8,228 nucleotides of DNA. Origin: a virus (Duplodnaviria; Heunggongvirae; Uroviricota; Caudoviricetes). Position 1 is the first letter of the stretch, and each line of letters starts with the position of its first letter. Below the pieces are notes generated by a model, which was not told the DNA's origin, searched no databases, and worked only from the letters and a program-made list of their open reading frames with translations. The stretch lies in the IMG/VR virus record IMGVR_UViG_2737471869_000029, positions 1 through 8,228 of that record; one strand, 5' to 3'. Of the stretch, positions 1 through 8,228 are shown one piece after another. The translations under genes were made by a program, and so were the position numbers.

Positions 1-52
1 GGACAGGCCCACCCCACCAGGAGGACCCGCAAAAAAGGCGGCTGCTGCCGCC
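1..52. repeat. Copy A of a conserved terminator-associated element (GGACAGGCCCACC-N3-CCAGGAG-N7-AAAAAAG-hairpin)
   Basis: Positions 1-37 align with 2530-2566: 13/13, then 3 mismatches, 7/7, 4/7, 7/7. Each copy is followed by a different GC-rich hairpin. Confidence 0.55.
31..52 (-). terminator. Rho-independent terminator after the capsid gene
   Basis: Minus-strand read: GGCGGC-AGCA-GCCGCC hairpin (37-52) followed by TTTTTT (31-36), 7 nt downstream of the stop at 59-61. Confidence 0.6.
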
Positions 53-58
53 TTGTTC

Positions 59-1939
59 TCATGAAGAAATCGCTCTGACCATTCCGCGATAATCCAGAGC
101 AGCAACGCCAGCATCAATGCGGACCTTCCAGGCCACACCGTCAACAATAAAGCCCTCCTGCTGCTCAAGGTAAGGCTCGTCATTACCGTCAAGATAAGCC
201 ACCTCAATTGTGTCCGTTCCCTGTGCTGAAAGCATGTACCATTGCTTATCACTGACTTCATCAAGGCGGGGATCGACAATAATATCCAGTTGTTTGTGGT
301 ACGGGTTATATGAACCACTGTTTGTATCGGCACCAAAAGGCGTGGTTGAGTTAACCATTTGCAACGCTCTGTCTTCCAGAGCCGCTGGAACAAGAAGGAA
401 TTTTGGCACAATATTCAGCACCTCACCGTTTTCATCCCTCTGTGTGCGCATTGCACGGCGTGCAATGCCAAGCCCTGTAGTGCTGACTCCGTTATCAATA
501 TCATTTCCGTGTTTTTTGCTGAACAGCGGTATACCGTCAGAAAGCTTTGTGTTTCCTGTCAGCACCAGATGAACCAGATTACCCACCGTTCTGGCGGCTG
601 CTCGCCCCATTGCCTGCGGGATAACGGTTAACTGATTCAGATCATCGTTAATAATCGCCTGTCGGGTAATGCTGAAAATATTACCGTAGGTGGCCAGCGC
701 GATTGGTTCACCACGGTCACTGGTGGTTATGTATTTATATTCCGCACCTTCCGGCACTTTGTTTAATGTCGAGAAGCCATTCAGACCAACACGACGCGCT
801 TCATGGAAGTTTGACAATGAACCTTTTTTCGTCCACTGGCGAAATGTCTCGCCGCTTTGCTCCCATCCGGCAAGCACTGATTTTTCAGCGCCACCAGCAA
901 GGATATAAGTAAAATCGCTGCTGCTGTGGTTGAATGCCGCGTTTACTATCTGCGAGCGTGTGCTGTAGCTGCCTGTGCTTATGCCGCGATGGGTTAATGA
1001 TGCCTGTGCCATATCGAAAAGGCTCATCATGGCGTAAGGGTTTCCGCGTTCTGCCTGCTCGTGCCCAAGACGCGCATTAAGCCCCTGACGCATTGCATCA
1101 CCCGTTATGTTGCCGTTATCCGTATATGCGTAGTAAAGATTTGCAGGTGTGGTTTTGTTTGTCGGTGTCGATTCTTTACCCATAGTGAGTAAAAGACGTT
1201 CGCGCGCATCCTCAACGCTACACCCTGAATCAGCAAGACAACTTATAGCCAGGTCGTTATATCTTCCGTTGAACGTACCGAACAACTCACGGATCCCGTT
1301 GAGTCGTTCCTGTTCTCCGCTGGTCGTTTTCTGGCTGATCATGTTCTTAATATTTTCCGGCATATTTGAAAAATCTCCGATTCGTTTTGATTCAATTCGG
1401 GCCATTGCTGTAATCGCGGGTATAACCTCGTCTGCGAAGCCGTTAGCCTTACACTCATTGCCATCCATCCAGGTTTCCGCCTCCATCATGGCGGTGATTT
1501 CCTGTTTGCTCCTGCCCGTTCTTCCGGCGTAGGTTTCAGCCATCGTGTCGCCCAGCTTGTCCATCAGGTCAGCAAAGCGGCGAACGTCGCCCGACACTCC
1601 GGCAGTAACACCACGGGGGGCATGTATCATCATCATTGCGTTTTCAGGCATAACGATGTGATCGCCACACATGGCAATAAACGAGGCCATAGAAGCCGCC
1701 ATGCCTTCAATGTGTACAATTTTCTTTGCCGGATGATTTTTCAGGGCGTTATAGATAGCCAGCCCTTCAAAGATGTCGCCACCAGGTGAATGGATGCGAA
1801 GATGGATTTCAGACGCATTACCACACGCGTTGATCTCGTCAGTAAGTGCCGATGCTTTTACACCGTACCCGCCGATCTCGTCATAAATGCGCACATAGAC
1901 AACATCTGCCATAGCCTTAATGGAAAACCATGTTTTCAT
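59..1939 (-). CDS. Prohead serine protease (ClpP-like) fused to HK97-fold major capsid protein, 626 aa
   Basis: N-terminal ~190 aa carries ClpP/S14-like motifs (HSPGGD, GMAASMAS with the nucleophile Ser, MMMIHAP with the His). The C-terminal ~400 aa has a phage major-capsid-like tail (FLLVPAALEDRAL ... GFIVDGVAWKVRIDAGVAALDYRGMVR). AGGAG sits 7 nt upstream of the ATG at 1939, and the start overlaps the upstream ORF stop (ATGA). A hairpin with T-tract follows the stop. Confidence 0.7.
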   Translation of the reverse strand: MKTWFSIKAMADVVYVRIYDEIGGYGVKASALTDEINACGNASEIHLRIHSPGGDIFEGLAIYNALKNHPAKKIVHIEGMAASMASFIAMCGDHIVMPENAMMMIHAPRGVTAGVSGDVRRFADLMDKLGDTMAETYAGRTGRSKQEITAMMEAETWMDGNECKANGFADEVIPAITAMARIESKRIGDFSNMPENIKNMISQKTTSGEQERLNGIRELFGTFNGRYNDLAISCLADSGCSVEDARERLLLTMGKESTPTNKTTPANLYYAYTDNGNITGDAMRQGLNARLGHEQAERGNPYAMMSLFDMAQASLTHRGISTGSYSTRSQIVNAAFNHSSSDFTYILAGGAEKSVLAGWEQSGETFRQWTKKGSLSNFHEARRVGLNGFSTLNKVPEGAEYKYITTSDRGEPIALATYGNIFSITRQAIINDDLNQLTVIPQAMGRAAARTVGNLVHLVLTGNTKLSDGIPLFSKKHGNDIDNGVSTTGLGIARRAMRTQRDENGEVLNIVPKFLLVPAALEDRALQMVNSTTPFGADTNSGSYNPYHKQLDIIVDPRLDEVSDKQWYMLSAQGTDTIEVAYLDGNDEPYLEQQEGFIVDGVAWKVRIDAGVAALDYRGMVRAISS

Positions 1940-2130
1940 AGCCAGGCTCCTAACGTTGCCCTGTACCAGTATTCAACCGCGCTGCGTGTGATTTGTCCTT
2001 TCGTGGGTACCGGCATACCCGGGTGATTGTCTTTGATGAACTGCTGATAGCGTTCGATCTTCTCCATAGTTCCGGCGTCTATGTGTACCGTGGCACTTTT
2101 ATCCGGCTTTCTGGTGTTGTTCTCTGGCAT
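1936..2130 (-). CDS. Hypothetical small protein, 64 aa from the ATG at 2130 (track gives 75 aa from 2163)
   Basis: GGAGG lies 8 nt upstream of the ATG at 2128-2130; the ATGATG at 2163 has no SD. Its stop overlaps the capsid start (ATGA), suggesting translational coupling. No recognisable motif. Confidence 0.5.
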   Translation of the reverse strand: MPENNTRKPDKSATVHIDAGTMEKIERYQQFIKDNHPGMPVPTKGQITRSAVEYWYRATLGAWL

Positions 2131-2212
2131 AAATCCGCCTCCGTTTTGATTAACGGGCATCATTATTGATCGATAAAAGTAATAGATAAATCATTTTCTA
2201 CCTGAAAATTAG

Positions 2213-2218
2213 ATTATA
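2213..2218 (-). promoter_or_regulatory. Candidate -10 hexamer (TATAAT on minus strand) for the small-ORF/capsid operon
   Basis: Perfect TATAAT on the minus strand about 80 nt upstream of the ORF start. No good -35 at 17 bp, which would fit an activator-dependent promoter. Confidence 0.25.
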
Positions 2219-2250
2219 TTTTTCTGATTATTCTCAGAGAGGCAAATCCA

Positions 2251-2280
2251 TTGACGCATTTTTGCTATTGAAGCAATATT
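2251..2280 (+). promoter_or_regulatory. Candidate sigma70 promoter on plus strand (TTGACG-N18-AATATT)
   Basis: TTGACG at 2251-2256 and AATATT at 2275-2280. It points rightward into a region with no plus-strand CDS but a strong plus-strand terminator 45-80 nt downstream. Confidence 0.3.
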
Positions 2281-2286
2281 AAGACT

Positions 2287-2361
2287 CGTCATCCTGGCGA
2301 TAAAAACTCCTTTGTCGTGTAAAAGCGCCTCCGGTAACAGCAATCGAGGGCGCTTTTTTTT
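2287..2361 (+). ncRNA. Candidate small RNA (about 75 nt) between the plus-strand promoter and terminator
   Basis: Bounded by the promoter candidate at 2251-2280 and the intrinsic terminator at 2325-2361. No ATG-initiated ORF inside. Purely structural inference. Confidence 0.2.
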
Positions 2362-2375
2362 GCGCCTGTTTTTTT
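2325..2375 (+). terminator. Strong plus-strand intrinsic terminator (tandem hairpins with T8 and T7 tracts)
   Basis: GCGCC(2325-2329) pairs with GGCGC(2349-2353), followed by T8 (2354-2361). A second hairpin GGCGC(2349-2353)/GCGCC(2362-2366) is followed by TGTTTTTTT. On the minus strand the T-tract is only TTTT. Confidence 0.55.
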
Positions 2376-2529
2376 GTAAATGTTTTCGGGAACGCTCCAG
2401 TGATGAACAAAAAACAACCTGATTCGACACTAAAAATTTTTATTCCTCAATATATCAATAACTTATAGTGGTGGTGATGGTGCCATAAAAATCAAAAAAT
2501 GCGCCTTTTTCCGCGCCCGCCCGCCCCGT

Positions 2530-2581
2530 GGACAGGCCCACCAAGCCAGGAGTACCTACAAAAAAGCCGGATTGCTCCGGC
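2530..2581. repeat. Copy B of the conserved terminator-associated element
   Basis: GGACAGGCCCACC (2530-2542), CCAGGAG (2546-2552), AAAAAAG (2560-2566), then hairpin GCCGGA-TTGC-TCCGGC (2566-2581). Preceded by an unusual CCGCGCCCGCCCGCCCC tract. Confidence 0.55.
2560..2581 (-). terminator. Rho-independent terminator after the 90-aa ORF
   Basis: Minus-strand read: GCCGGA-GCAA-TCCGGC hairpin followed by TTTTTT, 20 nt downstream of the ORF stop at 2601. Confidence 0.6.
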
Positions 2582-2600
2582 TGTGTGCTCACTTCTTCGG

Positions 2601-2873
2601 TTATTCTCCAGCGCTTTTAACGTTGATGGTTGTTACCTCTTCCGCTTCGGCAATCTCCCGCTCTGTCAGCGTGGCAAAGTTTGCCGCCGTCGTGGTCATG
2701 AATGCGCTTATCAGTTCGGGATGTGCTTTCGCATATCCTTCCCCCGCATGGCGGTCTATCGTTCTGATTGCCACCTTTAAAGCGTGCTCTGTCATGTCTA
2801 ACGCGCGATATTTCGGTTCTGTTCTGTCTCTGCGTTTTTTGAGTGATTTATTAAATTTCCCTGAAGTGTGCAT
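2601..2873 (-). CDS. Hypothetical protein, 90 aa, immediately downstream of the origin
   Basis: ATG at 2871-2873 with GAGGGGG about 11 nt upstream; own terminator downstream. Ala-rich helical-looking sequence with no motif I can name. Confidence 0.5.
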   Translation of the reverse strand: MHTSGKFNKSLKKRRDRTEPKYRALDMTEHALKVAIRTIDRHAGEGYAKAHPELISAFMTTTAANFATLTEREIAEAEEVTTINVKSAGE

Positions 2874-2919
2874 ATTTATTTTTACCCCCTCGTTTAAAAA
2901 GTTTTGAGTTGTGCCTCCC

Positions 2920-3150
2920 CTTGTCTACCTTATCTACCTTAGTGGCCATCATGCCAGTAATGGCGCGGCTTTCAGCGGGGTAGAGTGCTTTTATCCACTA
3001 TCTACCCCGTGTCTACCTCCCTGTCTGATTCAGGTAAAATCAGGTAGAGAGGGTAGATAGTGGGTAGACAGTAAAAAAAGGCTATCTACATAACTTAATG
3101 CACTGAATTAAATGTATTTTTCTTTACTCAGGTAGACAGGGTAGACAGCA
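2920..3150. repeat. Iteron-type replication origin: at least 10 copies of GGTAGA(C/G/T)(A) in both orientations around an AT-rich core
   Basis: TCTACC orientation at 2924-2929, 2933-2938, 3001-3006, 3012-3017. GGTAGA orientation at 3043-3048, 3052-3057, 3063-3068, and tandem GGTAGACAG at 3131-3139 and 3140-3148. AT-rich segment at 3072-3128. Sits directly 3' of the primase-helicase stop (3162). Confidence 0.65.
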
Positions 3151-3161
3151 ATTACAAAAAA

Positions 3162-4910
3162 TTATAAAAACGCGTCGCACTCGTCTGTTGTTATTGCGTT
3201 AGTCTGCGTTACTCCCTTAACTTTCCGCGTAATATATTCATGTCCGTAAACTTTCGCGGCTGGCTTCATAGCCTTGCCAAAGTCATTTACGTTTAGCGGT
3301 TTGCTCCTGCCTGCGTACGCCATAAACGCCAGATAGACGCGGTAAAGGCTGTTCCTGGTCGTGTACTTCACTGAATCACCACCGCCACCCATCATCAGGC
3401 CGCGCGCTTCCTCCAGAAAATTCAGGAACTGGCAAAACTCAATAACCGGATCCGTCTGTTGCTTTATTGCCAGTGCTTCATCACCGTCACGCTGTTCCAG
3501 TAGTAAAGCCCGTGCCTTCTCAGGGTCGGTAAAGTTCGCCAGCAATCGGCGGATAATGACAGGGATTTCAGCCGCGATCTTTTCCGGTAGCTCCCTGTCT
3601 TTTTCGGCCTCACTGACGATATTGTCGAAACGGAAAATTACGCGACGACGTGACACACCTCCGGCCCGTTCGGTGAATATCATCGGGTTATTGTTGGTAG
3701 CCAGCACCACCGCCCTGATTACCGCCGTAAAACGCTTCTCATATTTCGGGTTTATTTCCACGGGGTCGCCGCCCGTGATTTTCTTGATGCCCGTTCCTTC
3801 GCCTGTATATTTCGGCTGGTCAGCCAGGACGATAAGACGACTCCCGACAACCTGCGCACGTCCACCAGCATCATCAAGCGATGTCATCTCCGCGCTCACC
3901 GTGTTCTGTTTCCCTGCCAGAAGGCTGGCTATGTGCGTGAATGTACTTTTACCGCTCCCGCCGTCTCCGGTGGCCTCAATAAACATCTGCCAGTCGTACC
4001 GGTTCGCCATAATCATGTACAGCGCGGCACATATACGCATCATCTTGCGCGGGTCTTTTCCGGCTGCGTGCTCAAGCCATTTATGAAAGTTTGGCGCGTT
4101 ATCGCGGATGTTCTCCCCAGGTGCTGGTGGCGTGTACTCAATGCCGTTGTGCGTGGTGATCCAGTTCTCCGGCGTGTGCGGGGAAAATTCCCCCGTTTTC
4201 AGGTCAAGCGCACCATTGGCGAACGGCAACAAATCGCCGGACGGCTCGCCCATTGGTTCGGCAATAACTTTTAACGCTTCCACGGCGTTATTGATTACGC
4301 GCTTGCTGAAAGTGGCCCTGTGCTCTGAATAGATCGCCACCATTTCGCGGCTAAGTTCCATTGTGCTGACCGGACACCATACCCCGCCGCGCCATACGTG
4401 AACGATTTCACTTTCCGGATGCACACAAACGCCATCAAATCGACCAGCAAGCATCTGTGCGCGCTCACTGTCTGCCATTTGTGCCAATTGCGTATTTTTC
4501 TGCTCCGGCATGGTAAGCCCTGCGGCAATATTTTCACGCTCAGCATTCAGATAGCGCCGCCAGTTTTCACACTTCTGGACGTGCATTCCTTCGGGGTAAA
4601 AATTTGCGTCCTGAATATCTGCCGCCGCCAGCTTCTGACCAATCTTCTTGGTCTCCACTAAATCCAGTTCTCCGGCCTGGTACAGCCTTACGCGCTTTTT
4701 CCCATCCGGAACAATTTTCAGCGCATCAAGTTCGGCAAGCTGATTTGGCCCAAGCCACACAGGCGGCACATTATCGCCGGATGCGGGGCCATCCTGCTCC
4801 TGCCATTGTTCCGCGTGTGACCAGGCATCACTACCCGCAAAGATAATTACCTCTGTGTCTTTGTGTTTTATTCCGCGTGGCTGTTTTTTTACGTTCGGTG
4901 CCAGTTTCAT
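3162..4910 (-). CDS. Replication primase / SF3 helicase (P4 alpha-like, D5 family; PICI pri-rep type), 582 aa
   Basis: Walker A GDGGSGKST and a downstream hydrophobic-acidic stretch (LIVLAD) typical of D5-like helicases; large N-terminal domain. Start ATG overlaps the upstream ORF stop (ATGA). Iterons lie immediately downstream. Confidence 0.88.
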   Translation of the reverse strand: MKLAPNVKKQPRGIKHKDTEVIIFAGSDAWSHAEQWQEQDGPASGDNVPPVWLGPNQLAELDALKIVPDGKKRVRLYQAGELDLVETKKIGQKLAAADIQDANFYPEGMHVQKCENWRRYLNAERENIAAGLTMPEQKNTQLAQMADSERAQMLAGRFDGVCVHPESEIVHVWRGGVWCPVSTMELSREMVAIYSEHRATFSKRVINNAVEALKVIAEPMGEPSGDLLPFANGALDLKTGEFSPHTPENWITTHNGIEYTPPAPGENIRDNAPNFHKWLEHAAGKDPRKMMRICAALYMIMANRYDWQMFIEATGDGGSGKSTFTHIASLLAGKQNTVSAEMTSLDDAGGRAQVVGSRLIVLADQPKYTGEGTGIKKITGGDPVEINPKYEKRFTAVIRAVVLATNNNPMIFTERAGGVSRRRVIFRFDNIVSEAEKDRELPEKIAAEIPVIIRRLLANFTDPEKARALLLEQRDGDEALAIKQQTDPVIEFCQFLNFLEEARGLMMGGGGDSVKYTTRNSLYRVYLAFMAYAGRSKPLNVNDFGKAMKPAAKVYGHEYITRKVKGVTQTNAITTDECDAFL

Positions 4911-5206
4911 TTTTTACCCCTGAATACGTTAAGCATCTTTTTTATTTCCTGAATATTGGCGCGTGCTTTCTCCCTGCTGGTGGGCACGTTATGCGGCGCG
5001 GTCTGTACAAGAGAAAAATCACGCCGGAACTGATAAACAGGCATCACGCAATCATATTCGTAACCCTCACGGCGGTAAGTTACGCACCGTCCCGCCACGC
5101 CCTTAATCATTACCGTGCCGCCGTACTGGTCGCGGTAAATATCACCGCGCGTAAATTTAGGGTGAGTGTTGCCACTGGCAGTTAAGCCAGAATATTTAAG
5201 TTTCAT
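4907..5206 (-). CDS. Hypothetical protein, 99 aa, coupled to the primase-helicase
   Basis: ATG at 5204-5206 with GGAG about 11 nt upstream; stop overlaps the primase start. No recognisable motif. Confidence 0.55.
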   Translation of the reverse strand: MKLKYSGLTASGNTHPKFTRGDIYRDQYGGTVMIKGVAGRCVTYRREGYEYDCVMPVYQFRRDFSLVQTAPHNVPTSREKARANIQEIKKMLNVFRGKK

Positions 5207-5211
5207 TATTT

Positions 5212-5442
5212 TTATTCTCCGGTGTGGGGCACGTTATTATTTTCGTGAATTGCCATTGCCTTATCCAGTTCATCAATAACAGGCGATAGTAATGTCTGAA
5301 TGGCTGCAAACATTAATACACCTGATTCCTCACCACCTTCCGGCACTTCAATTAATTTAATTAACAACGCATTCATTTCGCGCGCTTTAATTAATGCGTT
5401 TTCAGAGTGGATTAATACTTCAAAAGGGATTTTATGCATCAC
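5212..5442 (-). CDS. Hypothetical small protein, 75-76 aa (GTG at 5442 or ATG at 5439)
   Basis: GGGAG lies 7 nt upstream of the GTG; the start overlaps the stop of the upstream 66-aa ORF (GTGATG / TGA). Helical, acidic sequence. Confidence 0.5.
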   Translation of the reverse strand: MMHKIPFEVLIHSENALIKAREMNALLIKLIEVPEGGEESGVLMFAAIQTLLSPVIDELDKAMAIHENNNVPHTGE

Positions 5443-5639
5443 AAAATTTCTCCCTGGCGAATACGGGCGGCGAATACCATCACGCAGCCATCAGGAGATT
5501 GCTGGCGTGCTTCCTGTTCGCTGGTGGCCTCAATGGTAATCACGCGCGGTTGTGCAGTGCTCAGGGCGATAAAACGCCAGATGTATTTATTCAGGTTGTG
5601 CGAGTCCCGCCCTTGCGGGTGTGTAGTATGATTTCTCAT
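5439..5639 (-). CDS. Hypothetical small protein, 66 aa, first gene of the leftward replication operon
   Basis: ATG at 5637-5639 with GAGGT 5 nt upstream. It is the C-terminal part of the 303-aa track ORF, which I reject as a whole. Confidence 0.45.
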   Translation of the reverse strand: MRNHTTHPQGRDSHNLNKYIWRFIALSTAQPRVITIEATSEQEARQQSPDGCVMVFAARIRQGEIL

Positions 5640-5735
5640 AGCTACCTCGATACTGTTGCTATCGTTGGTGGTTAGAAGCCCGGTTAGTGTTAGCGCACTG
5701 CCGGGTTTCGTCGTTTCTGCACCTTGCATCAACAA

Positions 5736-5810
5736 GGTGTTGAACACCAATTTAAACCTAGGTGTTAAACACGTCAAGTGTTGAACACTTGTTTTTTTTC
5801 CTGCATACTG
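5736..5810. promoter_or_regulatory. Genetic switch: three palindromic operators GTGTTnAACAC over back-to-back divergent promoters
   Basis: Operators at 5737-5747, 5762-5772 and 5778-5788. Leftward promoter candidate (minus strand) TTGACG 5772-5777, N17, TAAATT 5749-5754. Rightward candidate TTGAAC 5781-5786, N17, CATACT 5804-5809. Confidence 0.6.
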
Positions 5811-5838
5811 CATTTGTTTTTTGTGAGGGGGACACAAC

Positions 5839-6018
5839 ATGGCGACAAAAGCAGTAAACGCAAAATCACAAACAGTTGCGGCAAGGGTTCCGCATGAAGT
5901 TATGAACAATGTTGAGGCGGTAAAAATGCCTGGTGAAAGTACAGGGCAGTTTGTAACAGCAGCATTAAAGCGAGAAGTTGAGTACCGCCAGCGCCGCAAG
6001 GCCAAAGAATCAGAATAA
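5839..6018 (+). CDS. Small ribbon-helix-helix-like DNA-binding protein, 59 aa (not in the ORF track)
   Basis: ATG at 5839 with GAGGGGG 6 nt upstream. Sequence MATKAVNAKSQTVAARVPHEVMNNVEAVKMPGESTGQFVTAALKREVEYRQRRKAKESE fits an RHH (Arc/CopG-like) beta-helix-GxS/T-helix pattern. Transcribed divergently from the replication operon. Confidence 0.55.
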   Translation: MATKAVNAKSQTVAARVPHEVMNNVEAVKMPGESTGQFVTAALKREVEYRQRRKAKESE

Positions 6019-6075
6019 TAACTATCATCGCCGTGGTGTGAGGAACTCCGGCGCATTGCTTTACAGGTACACAGA

Positions 6076-6249
6076 ATGACCAACAAAGAATCAACCAATA
6101 CACCATCACCGGCACGGAAAAGACGGCGCAGAAAGATAGAGCATGAATCAGAAAGATTCGCGCCATGTGCTTTTGCCCTTGAGCAATTCCTTAAAGAGTA
6201 CAGGGAAACGCGCTCATTGCAGGTATGGCAACGAACTGAACCAGACTGA
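6076..6249 (+). CDS. Hypothetical small basic protein, 57 aa (not in the ORF track)
   Basis: ATG at 6076 with a weak AGGT SD 7 nt upstream; same frame as the RHH ORF. Arg/Lys-rich N-terminus (ARKRRRRK). A plus-strand terminator follows. Confidence 0.3.
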   Translation: MTNKESTNTPSPARKRRRRKIEHESERFAPCAFALEQFLKEYRETRSLQVWQRTEPD

Positions 6250-6313
6250 TTGCATTGCCCACCAGCCTGATAGCGGCTATCATCCCCGTGCTTATGTTTA
6301 GTGCTTTCCCATT

Positions 6314-6344
6314 GGCGACCGCCCCCGGTCGCCTTTGTTTTATG
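6314..6344 (+). terminator. Plus-strand intrinsic terminator ending the rightward small operon
   Basis: Perfect 8-bp stem GGCGACCG / CGGTCGCC (6314-6321, 6326-6333) with a 4-nt loop, then TTTGTTTTATG. No T-tract on the minus strand. Confidence 0.6.
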
Positions 6345-6360
6345 TGTCATATGCTCCCCT

Positions 6361-6570
6361 TTACACTGCCTTACCTGAATTAATGCGATCCCGGCTTTTA
6401 ACCCATTCCATAACCTCGGACAGCAGCCACCCTACAGAACGACCGCCCAGATTAAGACGTGACGGAAAGCGCCCTTTTTTCTCCAGTTCGTAACGTGTAG
6501 TGCGGCACACTCCAGTTAACTTACGACATTCATCCTCACGGATTACGCGATCTTCATTTATTTCACGCAT
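6361..6570 (-). CDS. alpA: AlpA-family (excisionase-like) transcriptional regulator, 69 aa from the ATG at 6570 (track gives 98 aa from a GTG at 6657)
   Basis: Conserved AlpA core CRKLTGVCRTTRYELEKKGRFPSRLNLGGRSVGWLLSEVMEWV. The 87 bp between 6571 and 6657 is very AT-rich, promoter-like, and has no SD before the GTG, so I prefer the ATG start. Confidence 0.82.
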   Translation of the reverse strand: MREINEDRVIREDECRKLTGVCRTTRYELEKKGRFPSRLNLGGRSVGWLLSEVMEWVKSRDRINSGKAV

Positions 6571-6693
6571 ACAAAAACCTACATAAAAATTACGTATATA
6601 AACTTTTCTCTTAGCTGTAGATATATGAGATCGGATATTACTTAGATTCTTTTTCACCTCTTAAATTAAAAACACAACCATGCTAAAGGCTTT

Positions 6694-6720
6694 GTTCGCT
6701 AAGGTTCGTAGAAGCTCGTT
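6694..6720. promoter_or_regulatory. Three 10-bp-phased direct repeats G(T/C)TCG(C/T)T upstream of alpA
   Basis: GTTCGCT at 6694, GTTCGTA at 6704, GCTCGTT at 6714: exact 10-bp periodicity. Confidence 0.3.
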
Positions 6721-6911
6721 AGTGTTTAAAATCGTGTCACGAGTTTTTAAGCGACGCAACAAAAAATGTCGTCATTTGGCATGACACCTGAATCACCTCA
6801 TTAAAAACAAATAGATAAACCATCAGGTGTTGGAACAATCAAGAAACAGAGAATAAGAACTCAGAAGAAGACATTTCAAATTTTTTCGATAGTTGACACA
6901 TATAAAGAGAA

Positions 6912-6983
6912 GATATTTGCAGATATTCCCCGATATTCTAAGATCTATTCACGGCTGTAATCTCTTAAAGAAAAAACAGCCGT
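6912..6983. promoter_or_regulatory. 10-bp-phased GATATT repeats plus an 8-bp inverted repeat just downstream of the int stop
   Basis: GATATT at 6912-6917, 6922-6927 and 6932-6937, with a degenerate GATCTATT at 6942-6949. Inverted repeat ACGGCTGT (6951-6958) / ACAGCCGT (6976-6983) with a 17-nt A-rich loop. A perfect TTGACA sits at 6893-6898. Confidence 0.35.
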
Positions 6984-6989
6984 AATTTG

Positions 6990-8228
6990 TCAAGAATTTT
7001 GGGGGTAAATTCGCGGGGTCATAACAACGATTTTTTCATCATTGTTCTGGAGAAGCTCGAGACGGTCTACCCATAGATTAAGAGCATCACGTTTTGCATC
7101 AAGGTAGCGGGAGTGGTTATAGACTCGTTGCATCCCTGGCATCTGGTGGGCTGTAAGCTGCTCGACAATATGCGGATCCACGCCTAAATCGTTCAGCATG
7201 GTTGTAAATGTGTGCCGGATATCGTGTAACGTCCAAGGGGCTTGATTAATTCGTCTGTGCGCTGTTCTTCCGTACTCTGCTACCGAAGATTGTCCTTTCA
7301 GTTCACCAAGCAATAAGCCCGTGTGTCTGTTCTGCTCCACCAGTTGCGTGACGAACGGCAAAATGCTTTCCGGTATTGGCCTGAATATGGCGACCTTCGT
7401 TTTGCTGTGCTCCTTCGGTACTGTCCAGAGCATTTCTTTAAAATCCCACTCCTGCACCTCAGAGCGCCTTAGCTCAGTGGTACGGCATCCAAAAACAATC
7501 AGGAGGCGAATTAGGGCGCTGTAGTATGGCGGGAATATTTTGTCATCCAGGGCGCGGAGTAATTCCCCAAGCTCCTTGTTTGTTAGTACGCGCTCGCTCA
7601 CTTCTGCTTTTTTTCCCACATCACCGACAACCATATCATCAAGAACGTTGCTGATTGCGTATCGTCGTTTTCGGCAGTACTTAAGCGCCTGTTTGCATAC
7701 CTGTAGCAAAAATCCGGCAGATACTGGGCTTCGCTTTGCCATCTGGTCAAAACATGCCAACCAGTGCCGTAGCTCGCATTTTTCCAACGGCAAAGCGCCA
7801 ATCTGGCTGATTATGTGTTTATTGATCCGGCTTTTCAGTGATTCGTAGTCAGTGCGCTTTTCCTTTGCATACGATTCAAGCCAGTAAGTGAGCGCTTCCT
7901 TAACTGTCACGGGGGCTAACGCATCCTGTACAGCACGATTAAGCTCATAGCGCGGATTTTTCCCCTCAGCCAGCCAGGCGCGACACTGTGCTGCTTTTTC
8001 CCTGGCTGCTTTCAGGCTCAGATCGGGATAATTGCCCAGTCTCAGACGTTCCGGTGATACCTGCCTACCAGTTCCGGCCCTGTAAGTGAAATACCAGGTT
8101 AACAGGCCGCTGGTGGAATGTCTTACGCTAAGATTGCCACCGTCATTAAAAAAGGCGTTTTTTGTGGTTGGTGATCCGCTTAATTTTCGTAAAAGAGTGT
8201 CGCTAAGTCTATGAATTGCGCTGCTCAT
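6990..8228 (-). CDS. int: Tyrosine recombinase / integrase, P4-type, 412 aa
   Basis: P4-int-like N-terminal arm-binding region (FNDGGNLSVRHSTSGLLTWYFTYR), catalytic motifs LHDIRHTFTT (His-x-x-Arg) and VYNHSRY (Tyr nucleophile), conserved Arg in GCRTTELRR. ATG is at 8226-8228, the window edge. Confidence 0.93.
   Translation of the reverse strand: MSSAIHRLSDTLLRKLSGSPTTKNAFFNDGGNLSVRHSTSGLLTWYFTYRAGTGRQVSPERLRLGNYPDLSLKAAREKAAQCRAWLAEGKNPRYELNRAVQDALAPVTVKEALTYWLESYAKEKRTDYESLKSRINKHIISQIGALPLEKCELRHWLACFDQMAKRSPVSAGFLLQVCKQALKYCRKRRYAISNVLDDMVVGDVGKKAEVSERVLTNKELGELLRALDDKIFPPYYSALIRLLIVFGCRTTELRRSEVQEWDFKEMLWTVPKEHSKTKVAIFRPIPESILPFVTQLVEQNRHTGLLLGELKGQSSVAEYGRTAHRRINQAPWTLHDIRHTFTTMLNDLGVDPHIVEQLTAHQMPGMQRVYNHSRYLDAKRDALNLWVDRLELLQNNDEKIVVMTPRIYPQNS

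Follow-up and report, generated by a model that had tools for sequence, protein, structure and literature searches.

The DNA considered here is an 8,228-nucleotide stretch of viral sequence (Caudoviricetes; IMG/VR record IMGVR_UViG_2737471869_000029, positions 1 to 8,228; in the following 'the window', meaning this stretch at its full length), which carries, close to its left end, a gene for a 626-residue protein joining a ClpP-like prohead protease, a scaffold-like region and a predicted major capsid protein in one polypeptide. The gene is accompanied by a small partner open reading frame (ORF), orf64, and belongs to an element that is very probably a classical Gram-negative, cos-type phage-inducible chromosomal island (PICI) of Escherichia coli. 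The main genes of the window all lie on the minus strand, and the only ORFs longer than 150 residues are those for the integrase, the primase, the fusion protein and a doubtful product of 303 residues. The parts of the capsid cassette are the following.

59-1939, minus strand: fusion ORF, 626 residues, ClpP-like prohead protease/scaffold-like linker/major capsid protein
1370-1939, minus strand: protease part of the fusion, about residues 1-190
953-1369, minus strand: linker and scaffold-like helices of the fusion, residues 191-329
62-952, minus strand: capsid domain of the fusion, residues 330-626
1936-2130, minus strand: orf64, the small partner of the fusion, 64 residues (75 residues with a start at 2163)
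31-52, minus strand: intrinsic terminator past the fusion gene (stop codon 59-61), GGCGGC-AGCA-GCCGCC + T6

The protein was first described, in the initial annotation of this DNA, as a fusion of a ClpP-like protease with an HK97-family capsid protein, and profile searches bear this out. Residues 41-173 match the Pfam family CLP_protease (E 3.7e-33) and, in a sequence search of the PDB, residues 41-177 can be aligned to solved ClpP structures; residues 330-623 match Phage_capsid_4 (PF25209, E 1.1e-54), and the capsid part also matches the Mu-like gpT family (PF10124, E 2.8e-10). Over its full length the protein matches NCBIfam NF045540, 'ClpP-like prohead protease/major capsid protein fusion protein', with 862 bits (the curated cut-off being 475 bits), and PHROG 133 (E 1.7e-271). 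By these profiles the C-terminal part is an HK97-family capsid protein; the sequence search against solved structures returned no capsid protein for it. The catalytic residues S83, H106 and D170 are kept within the motifs AAS83MAS, MIH106AP and FAD170EV. Among the 24 fusion proteins compared (10 from satellites and 14 from phages), the catalytic Ser and His are invariant, and the Asp is present in all ten satellite and in 13 of the 14 phage copies. An AlphaFold model, computed from an alignment of 15 sequences that are very alike, is confident in the protease domain only. In a public assembly collection, 218 blocks contain the identical protein, and PGAP annotation names it routinely. The allele found in the window is itself a mosaic, identical in the protease part to the allele of locus L001 (synonymous divergence, dS, 0.008), whereas the capsid parts of the same pair share 86% protein identity with a dS of 0.76, a contrast that points to recombination within the gene between satellite alleles.

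A GGAGG sequence 7 nt ahead of the ATG at 2130 argues for the 64-residue form of orf64. Its TGA overlaps the ATG of the fusion gene (ATGA at 1936-1939), by which overlap, to judge from the sequence, the two genes are translationally coupled; downstream, the terminator consists of a 6-bp GC stem with an AGCA loop followed by T6, an arrangement that recurs in relatives. Thus, the coupled small ORF upstream and the terminator downstream, both called at the outset, are confirmed by the ATGA overlap and by the hairpin with its T run. The product of orf64 matches PHROG 4934 (E 1.8e-51), no Pfam or NCBIfam family and, by single sequence, no PDB entry. A profile search of the PDB gave insignificant matches (E ~1) to ribbon-helix-helix antitoxins of the CopG/Arc/MetJ type, and a single-sequence AlphaFold2 model shows two helices at low confidence (pLDDT 65), so that the fold is possibly ribbon-helix-helix-like.

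All 8,228 bases of the window are found, at 100% identity, at positions 3712-11939 of a public E. coli contig (L092), in which the island is complete. Four further contigs match the window with one to three mismatches, and complete genomes, at 96% identity, have the same arrangement. In L092, imperfect attachment-site (att) direct repeats of 64 nt lie 10,123 bp apart, giving an island of ~10.1 kb of which the window is about 80%. The island sits in the E. coli chromosome between cspD/yljB and clpS, where no helper gene is interrupted. The ~1.9 kb to the left of the window hold a cos site, a 93-residue ORF, a 99-residue ORF on the strand opposite to that of the fusion, a PerC-family gene and an att repeat, followed by clpS; the second repeat lies just past the integrase gene, outside the window, beside yljB/cspD. 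The gene order is therefore int-alpA-...-DUF4222-primase-90aa-orf64-fusion-93aa-99aa-PerC. Genes for portal, terminase, connector, cement, tail or lysis proteins were found neither within the window nor elsewhere in the island in L092. As had been proposed from the window by itself, the fusion is the sole virion structural gene of the island.

The joining of protease, scaffold and capsid protein in one chain is not an invention of the satellite, being the ordinary head protein of a very common group of lambdoid phages, long-tailed Stx phages among them. The best matches of the satellite protein in the phage collection share only 47-52% identity with it, and are found in mEp460, mEp043, mEp213, cdtI, Gifsy-2, the Stx1 phage CP-1639, Stx2a phages of O145:H28 and LESphi3-like phages of Pseudomonas. 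The phage genes run in the order TerL (large terminase subunit), a small ORF, portal, fusion, cement protein and tail genes. The phage-type protein, encoded between the portal and the cement/tail genes, falls in the same NF045540 and PHROG 133 families, is collinear with the satellite protein over the full length and carries identical catalytic motifs.

A scan of one genome per species yielded 77 fusion loci, and those with a readable gene context fall into two clean classes: phage-type loci (TerL-portal-fusion-cement) and satellite-type loci, in which int, alpA or a primase gene lies upstream, orf64 immediately precedes the fusion gene, and portal and terL are always absent. Satellite-type loci occur in Escherichia, Kluyvera (two loci), Yersinia, Buttiauxella, Moellerella and Rahnella. 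The satellite fusions are monophyletic (neighbour-joining bootstrap 200/200), with the phage copies as their sister clade; identity is at least 58% within the satellite clade and 46-64% between satellite and phage copies. Across the six genera, a homologue of orf64 (39-70% identity) stands ahead of every satellite fusion. Furthermore, the linker between protease and scaffold measures 17-23 residues in all ten satellite copies versus 36-54 residues in all 14 phage copies, the satellite form having lost a tether rich in Pro and Ala, together with the beginning of the first scaffold-like helix. Between satellite alleles, the ratio of nonsynonymous to synonymous divergence (dN/dS) is 0.05-0.14 in the protease, the linker/scaffold and the capsid parts, with dS up to 0.97; the satellite fusion is under purifying selection. 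Taken by sequence, then, it is a long-diverged, satellite-specific paralogue (~50% identity) of the phage head protein. A second E. coli lineage has a fusion of 637 residues, 62% identical to that of the window, in the same kind of island; it is represented in 520 collection blocks, and a near-full-length DNA match is found in about 184 complete genomes.

The helpers of the island are inferred to be the lambdoid phages that build their heads from the fusion protein, an assignment that is based on embedded relatives, shared cos sequence and the abundance of such phages. A satellite of this type is inserted in the terL gene of a prophage in O157:H7 and in strain SCU-171, the prophage having a phage-type fusion of its own; satellite and helper copies of the gene lie a few kb apart in these two E. 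coli strains (L004, L005). In Kluyvera (L007 3219-14500) and Rahnella (L074 2592-14124) the satellite lies between the portal and fusion genes of the helper, and the helper fusion match there is missing the 5' end, suggesting that the element integrated inside the fusion gene. Among 5426 complete E. coli genomes, 2070 have the phage-type gene, and suitable helpers should thus be plentiful. The cos sequences frame the capsid cassette as follows.

2397-2563, minus strand: cos-A, upstream of the capsid cassette (full copy L092 9350-9815)
2511-2530, minus strand: G-rich, cosN-like core of cos-A, CACGGGGCGGGCGGGCGCGG
1-30, minus strand: start of cos-B, its cosQ-like part, downstream of the cassette (full copy L092 11885-12145)
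2565-2582, minus strand: intrinsic terminator after the 90-residue ORF, directly 5' of cos-A

The edge of the window cuts cos-B right before its G-rich, cosN-like core. Both copies follow a terminator and hold the core CACGGGGCGGGCGGGCGCGG. cos-A resembles the cos region of the Stx1 phage CP-1639 (90% over 167 nt), and cos-B that of an O157:H7 lambdoid prophage (85% over 204 nt). The latter region lies between the lysis genes and a DUF1441 terS (small terminase) gene, and is taken as cos because this is where lambdoid cos sites lie. As cos-A and cos-B match two phage cos types, the island may be packageable by two helper types; EcCICFT073, a PICI of E. coli, also has two cos sites, which were shown to be functional (PMC6092414). 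The 16-mer AGGTTGTTTTTTGTTC is found after both cos copies, and the helper has a near-identical copy, GGGTTGTTTTTTGTTC, in which the first base differs. The product of orf64 is, by sequence comparison, unlike the W-like ORF and the TerS of the helper.

The remaining genes of the window belong to the front end and the replication module of the island.

6990-8228, minus strand: tyrosine integrase, the start codon being the last triplet of the window
6361-6657, minus strand: AlpA-family regulator (PF05930 Phage_AlpA, E 2.1e-16; gene callers give a 69-residue form)
4907-5206, minus strand: DUF4222 protein, conserved directly upstream of the primase in these PICIs
3162-4910, minus strand: primase/replicase (D5_N, DUF5906, Pox_D5; TIGR01613; P4-family primase C-terminal domain)
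2917-3151: iteron-type origin with GGTAGAYAG repeats running both ways, directly past the 3' end of the primase gene
2601-2873, minus strand: 90-residue ORF (PHROG 1231) closing the replication module, without matches in Pfam or the PDB

Between the regulator and the DUF4222 gene, the 303-residue ORF (5439-6350, minus strand), called by some gene finders, has no family match. It overlaps a plus-strand YlcI/YnfO gene where the GC skew reverses (5839-6018 and 6076-6249, plus strand), and the PGAP annotation of relatives places there an Icd-like ORF, YlcI/YnfO and a pseudogene; the ORF is probably spurious. This region corresponds to the variable 'Bro/immunity' zone of PICIs. No C4/isrK-type RNA was found in it at the Rfam threshold, nor were tRNAs or known RNA families found in the window.

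The initial annotation had described the backbone as of P4 or PICI type. The satellite core (integrase, AlpA, primase, iterons) is indeed there, and of the two affiliations that with the PICIs stands while that with P4 does not. With reference to the definition of PICIs by Fillol-Salom et al. 2018, the element has a terminal integrase and att repeats at a specific site, an AlpA-family regulator with co-oriented genes, its own primase/replicase with the origin immediately 3' of it (the location described for the PICI origin in PMC6092414), a size within ~8-15 kb with neither tail or lysis genes nor a full head module, and two copies of a sequence matching phage cos regions, these last recognized from sequence only. 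The reference PICI EcCIIHE3034 (Table S1 of Fillol-Salom et al. 2018) occupies the same cspD-clpS site and has near-identical int, AlpA, DUF4222 and primase, as well as the 93-residue ORF at 88% identity; where it differs is in its cassette, which holds genes for a lambda E-like capsid protein and a gpD-like decoration protein, plus one annotated as small terminase. More generally, the island shares with EcCIIHE3034, EcCICFT073 and EcCI042 the order int-alpA-(variable zone)-DUF4222-primase-ori-late zone over ~10-11 kb, the PerC accessory gene, the same 93-residue ORF near the end, two cos sites with helper-like cosQ/cosN, and a lone capsid homologue placed after a small coupled ORF. In these three PICIs the cassette consists of a small ORF, a 351-residue lambda E-like capsid protein, a gpD-like decoration protein and an RppA-like or annotated small-terminase gene; in the island of the window it consists of orf64 and the 626-residue fusion, with no Rpp, TerS or decoration/cement gene. 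The small ORFs upstream of the capsid genes are unrelated, orf64 having no similarity to the 68-residue ORF ahead of the lambda-type capsid gene of EcCIIHE3034, and, unlike in the reference PICIs, both cos sites are helper-like beyond the cosN-like core. By sequence comparison, this amounts to a cassette swap inside a known family, in which a fusion-type capsid cassette has replaced the lambda-type one.

The 93-residue ORF (L092 12140-12421, just left of the window; PHROG 1561; also L087 10444-10725) is conserved at 82-88% identity across PICIs with lambda-type and fusion-type cassettes, and its placement relative to cos-B is where terS would be. Neither it nor the 90-residue ORF could be recognized as an Rpp analogue. 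No ORF of the size of an RppA-type protein (~144 residues, with a winged helix-turn-helix domain like the TerS N-terminus) is found in the late zone, and the 64/75-, 90- and 93-residue ORFs have neither matches to solved structures, 6HLK and 6HN7 included, nor similarity to the helper's DUF1441 TerS. With no recognizable Rpp, Ppi or TerS gene found in the island, the capsid cassette is its main candidate module for exploiting the helper.

Other lineages of the clade are different in this respect. In the second E. coli lineage (L083-L086 12171-12656) a full DUF1441 small terminase of 161 residues comes right after the fusion gene, and in Kluyvera (L006 7382-7639) and Yersinia (L008 12077-12301) an ORF of 74-85 residues after the fusion gene corresponds to the DNA-binding N-terminus of TerS, with 41% identity to the TerS of the O157 helper. 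These terminase-related genes, of which the island of the window has none, are, from their sequences, candidate Rpp-like redirectors of packaging. Separately, a 199-residue ORF of the Kluyvera satellite (L006 7626-8225) matches lambda tail assembly protein I weakly, with 26.8 bits at a cut-off of 23.8; a tail-related gene in the late zone of a PICI would be unexpected.

Comparison with other catalogued satellites, which the initial annotation had called for, matched the island with EcCIIHE3034 and with neither the capsid-forming PICIs (cf-PICIs) nor the P4-like elements. The cf-PICI EcCIEDL933 has the same int-alpA-primase front end and its own capsid protein and protease (10.1101/2022.09.08.507074), but the cf-PICI gene set further includes portal, head-tail adaptor/connector, HNH, TerS and TerL (PMC10085698; 10.1101/2022.09.08.507074), none of which is found here, and membership of that group is ruled out by the gene content of the window and of the rest of the island. 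P4 resembles the island in its size (~10-11 kb), in being packaged from cos, and in having a tyrosine integrase, a regulator of the AlpA type and a primase domain of the P4 family; its helpers, however, are P2-like myoviruses, whereas those proposed here are lambdoid siphoviruses. P4 encodes no capsid protein, whereas the island has its own capsid gene and lacks Sid, Psu and Delta, so that, with no Psu-Delta-Sid operon, it is not P4-like. A further comparison is offered by the helper-embedded PICIs of Tommasini, Mageeney & Williams 2023 (PMC10111431), in that relatives with the same cassette are embedded in helpers, whereas the copy in the window is chromosomal; its integrase shares 23% identity with those of the terL-embedded relatives and ~40% with those of the Kluyvera and Rahnella elements.

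The unusualness implied by the initial annotation was overstated. Among the late genes of Gram-negative PICIs, a lone capsid homologue is the one seen most often, in 21 of 29 reference elements (PMC10111431), and the fusion is the standard head protein of its phages. PICIs with a late gene of the CLP_protease type are already in a published dataset (site C:CLP_protease:110; PMC10111431). Thus, the PICI backbone is catalogued, lone PICI capsid genes are documented and the protein family is curated. The literature searched does not contain the recognition of the satellite fusions as a separate, old clade with a fixed 64-residue partner and a short linker, the alternation of fusion-type and lambda-type cassettes on one PICI backbone, or the match of the flanking cos sites to two phage cos types.

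As to function, the best mechanistic model, by analogy, is Ccm of SaPIbov5. Like the fusion, it is the product of a cos-packaged island with no portal or terminase of its own, is homologous to the HK97-type capsid protein of the helper and carries a scaffold-like extension at the N-terminus (PMC8569155). Ccm occupies the pentamers of small capsids (PMC8569155). It differs from the fusion in having 24% identity to the helper protein and no protease domain, and it turns prolate heads isometric (PMC8569155); a change of size is proven for the Ccm system and predicted for the E. coli island. PmCI172, a Gram-negative PICI with a capsid homologue, also makes small capsids (PMC6092414, PMC6893505). 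In the favoured explanation, a helper of the fusion-head group would induce the island via AlpA, as in the PICI paradigm (PMC6092414, PMC6739421), and the primase would replicate it from the iteron origin. The helper would provide portal, terminase, cement protein, connectors, tails and lysis, its terminase cutting and packaging island concatemers at cos-A and/or cos-B. The satellite fusion would assemble on the helper portal, either by itself or, in the manner of Ccm in SaPIbov5, together with helper subunits, and the shell would be processed by its own ClpP-like protease to give satellite-specific, probably smaller capsids; the short protease-scaffold linker and the obligatory orf64 are candidate determinants of specificity or size. 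The fusion has the protease, scaffold-like region and capsid domain that a shell subunit of this phage type requires; only the portal and completion proteins are missing.

This favoured explanation, taken as a whole, is given a probability of about 0.5. That the fusion has a structural or capsid-size-redirecting role, a point argued by analogy, is a tentative proposal with slightly less than an even chance of being right. Since protease, scaffold and capsid are one polypeptide in this family, a single gene together with orf64 could supply a complete shell, and the island could then be a minimal capsid-forming PICI, with a self-processing shell made from the fusion and orf64, small capsids sized by the short linker, portal, terminase, connectors and tails all borrowed, and two cos sites for two types of helper; such a full version is possible but doubtful.

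Several published observations on PICIs, along with the structural model, count against assigning the fusion a role in the capsid. In EcCICFT073, deletion of c1499 (the capsid homologue) or of c1500 (the decoration gene) left the interference with lambda intact (PMC6092414), genes other than rppA were without effect on lambda when over-expressed (PMC6739421), and, with lambda or phi80 as helper, its DNA is packaged phage-sized into full-size heads (PMC6092414, PMC6739421). Capsid genes are reportedly dispensable for PICI transfer, in the one case tested (PMC10111431; PMC6092414). In the AlphaFold model of the fusion, residues 325-626 have a pLDDT <50, which gives no basis for predicting interfaces or a triangulation number.

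PICIs have taken up late genes of their helpers repeatedly, and in a different account the fusion is a captured late gene of marginal or conditional use, a backup or dosage copy that leaves the capsid architecture unchanged and is dispensable for transfer. Capture and a 'backup copy' were proposed by Tommasini et al., with reference to the tolerated capsid knockout (PMC10111431), and the packaging of EcCICFT073 in full-size capsids (PMC6092414) agrees with it; use as a backup is conceivable where a helper-embedded relative interrupts the head gene of the helper, and satellite relatives do sit in the helper's terL or beside its fusion gene. The window's island, however, is chromosomal, at cspD-clpS, and interrupts no helper gene. 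Moreover, the clade, with ~50% identity to every phage copy, is old; it is monophyletic (bootstrap 200/200), spans six genera and combines derived traits (short linker, orf64) with strong purifying selection, all of which is unlike a recent or redundant capture, so that this account is rather unlikely.

Less probable still, though not negligible, is a role as interference factor, in which the protein would act as a dominant-negative subunit or would cleave the helper's scaffold or capsid protein prematurely, with no productive satellite capsids being made. Interference with helpers is typical of PICIs, and the absence of recognizable Rpp, Ppi and TerS leaves room for another factor in this island. 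The retained catalytic triad and the ~55% identity to the helper subunit, at which mixed assembly is plausible, are also in keeping with such a role. In EcCICFT073, however, interference maps to RppA and not to the capsid homologue (PMC6739421, PMC6092414), and the low dN/dS in all three domains, together with the completeness of the capsid domain, fits a complete assembling subunit better than a poison.

The window stops 58 nt past the fusion gene and, alone, does not decide whether a larger head module, be it of a cf-PICI or of a degraded prophage, has its portal and terminase genes just outside, as the initial annotation had allowed; but in the identical contig L092, where the island is complete, in the contigs with 1-3 mismatches and in the complete genomes at 96%, the island ends ~1.9 kb to the left with small ORFs and PerC only, satellites in other genera are likewise devoid of portal and terL, and that reading is refuted by L092 and is now extremely improbable. 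Equally improbable is that the gene is a decaying, non-functional remnant, for which only the lack of partner head genes speaks, against an intact ORF, an exact protein in 218 collection blocks, a dN/dS of ~0.1 at dS up to 0.97 between alleles, and conserved catalytic residues.

What these findings bear on is the role of the lone capsid homologues of PICIs, a question so far addressed by one knockout, with lambda as a surrogate helper, which gave no phenotype. The fusion-type cassette is a clean test system, in that one gene comprises protease, scaffold and shell and, the island having no Rpp or TerS, tests of the role of the capsid gene are not confounded by them. The candidate helpers (mEp460, mEp043, cdtI and relatives of Stx phages) are common and culturable, and the satellite clade offers defined traits to mutate, namely the short linker, orf64 and the catalytic Ser. 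Shiga-toxin-producing serotypes (O157:H7, O145:H28, O111, O121, O103 and O91) account for many carriers of the satellite lineage; with such carriers, and with Stx phages among the candidate helpers, the island might affect the yield of Stx phages and the spread of the PerC-family regulator. The findings overturn nothing, but make the role of PICI capsid genes directly testable.

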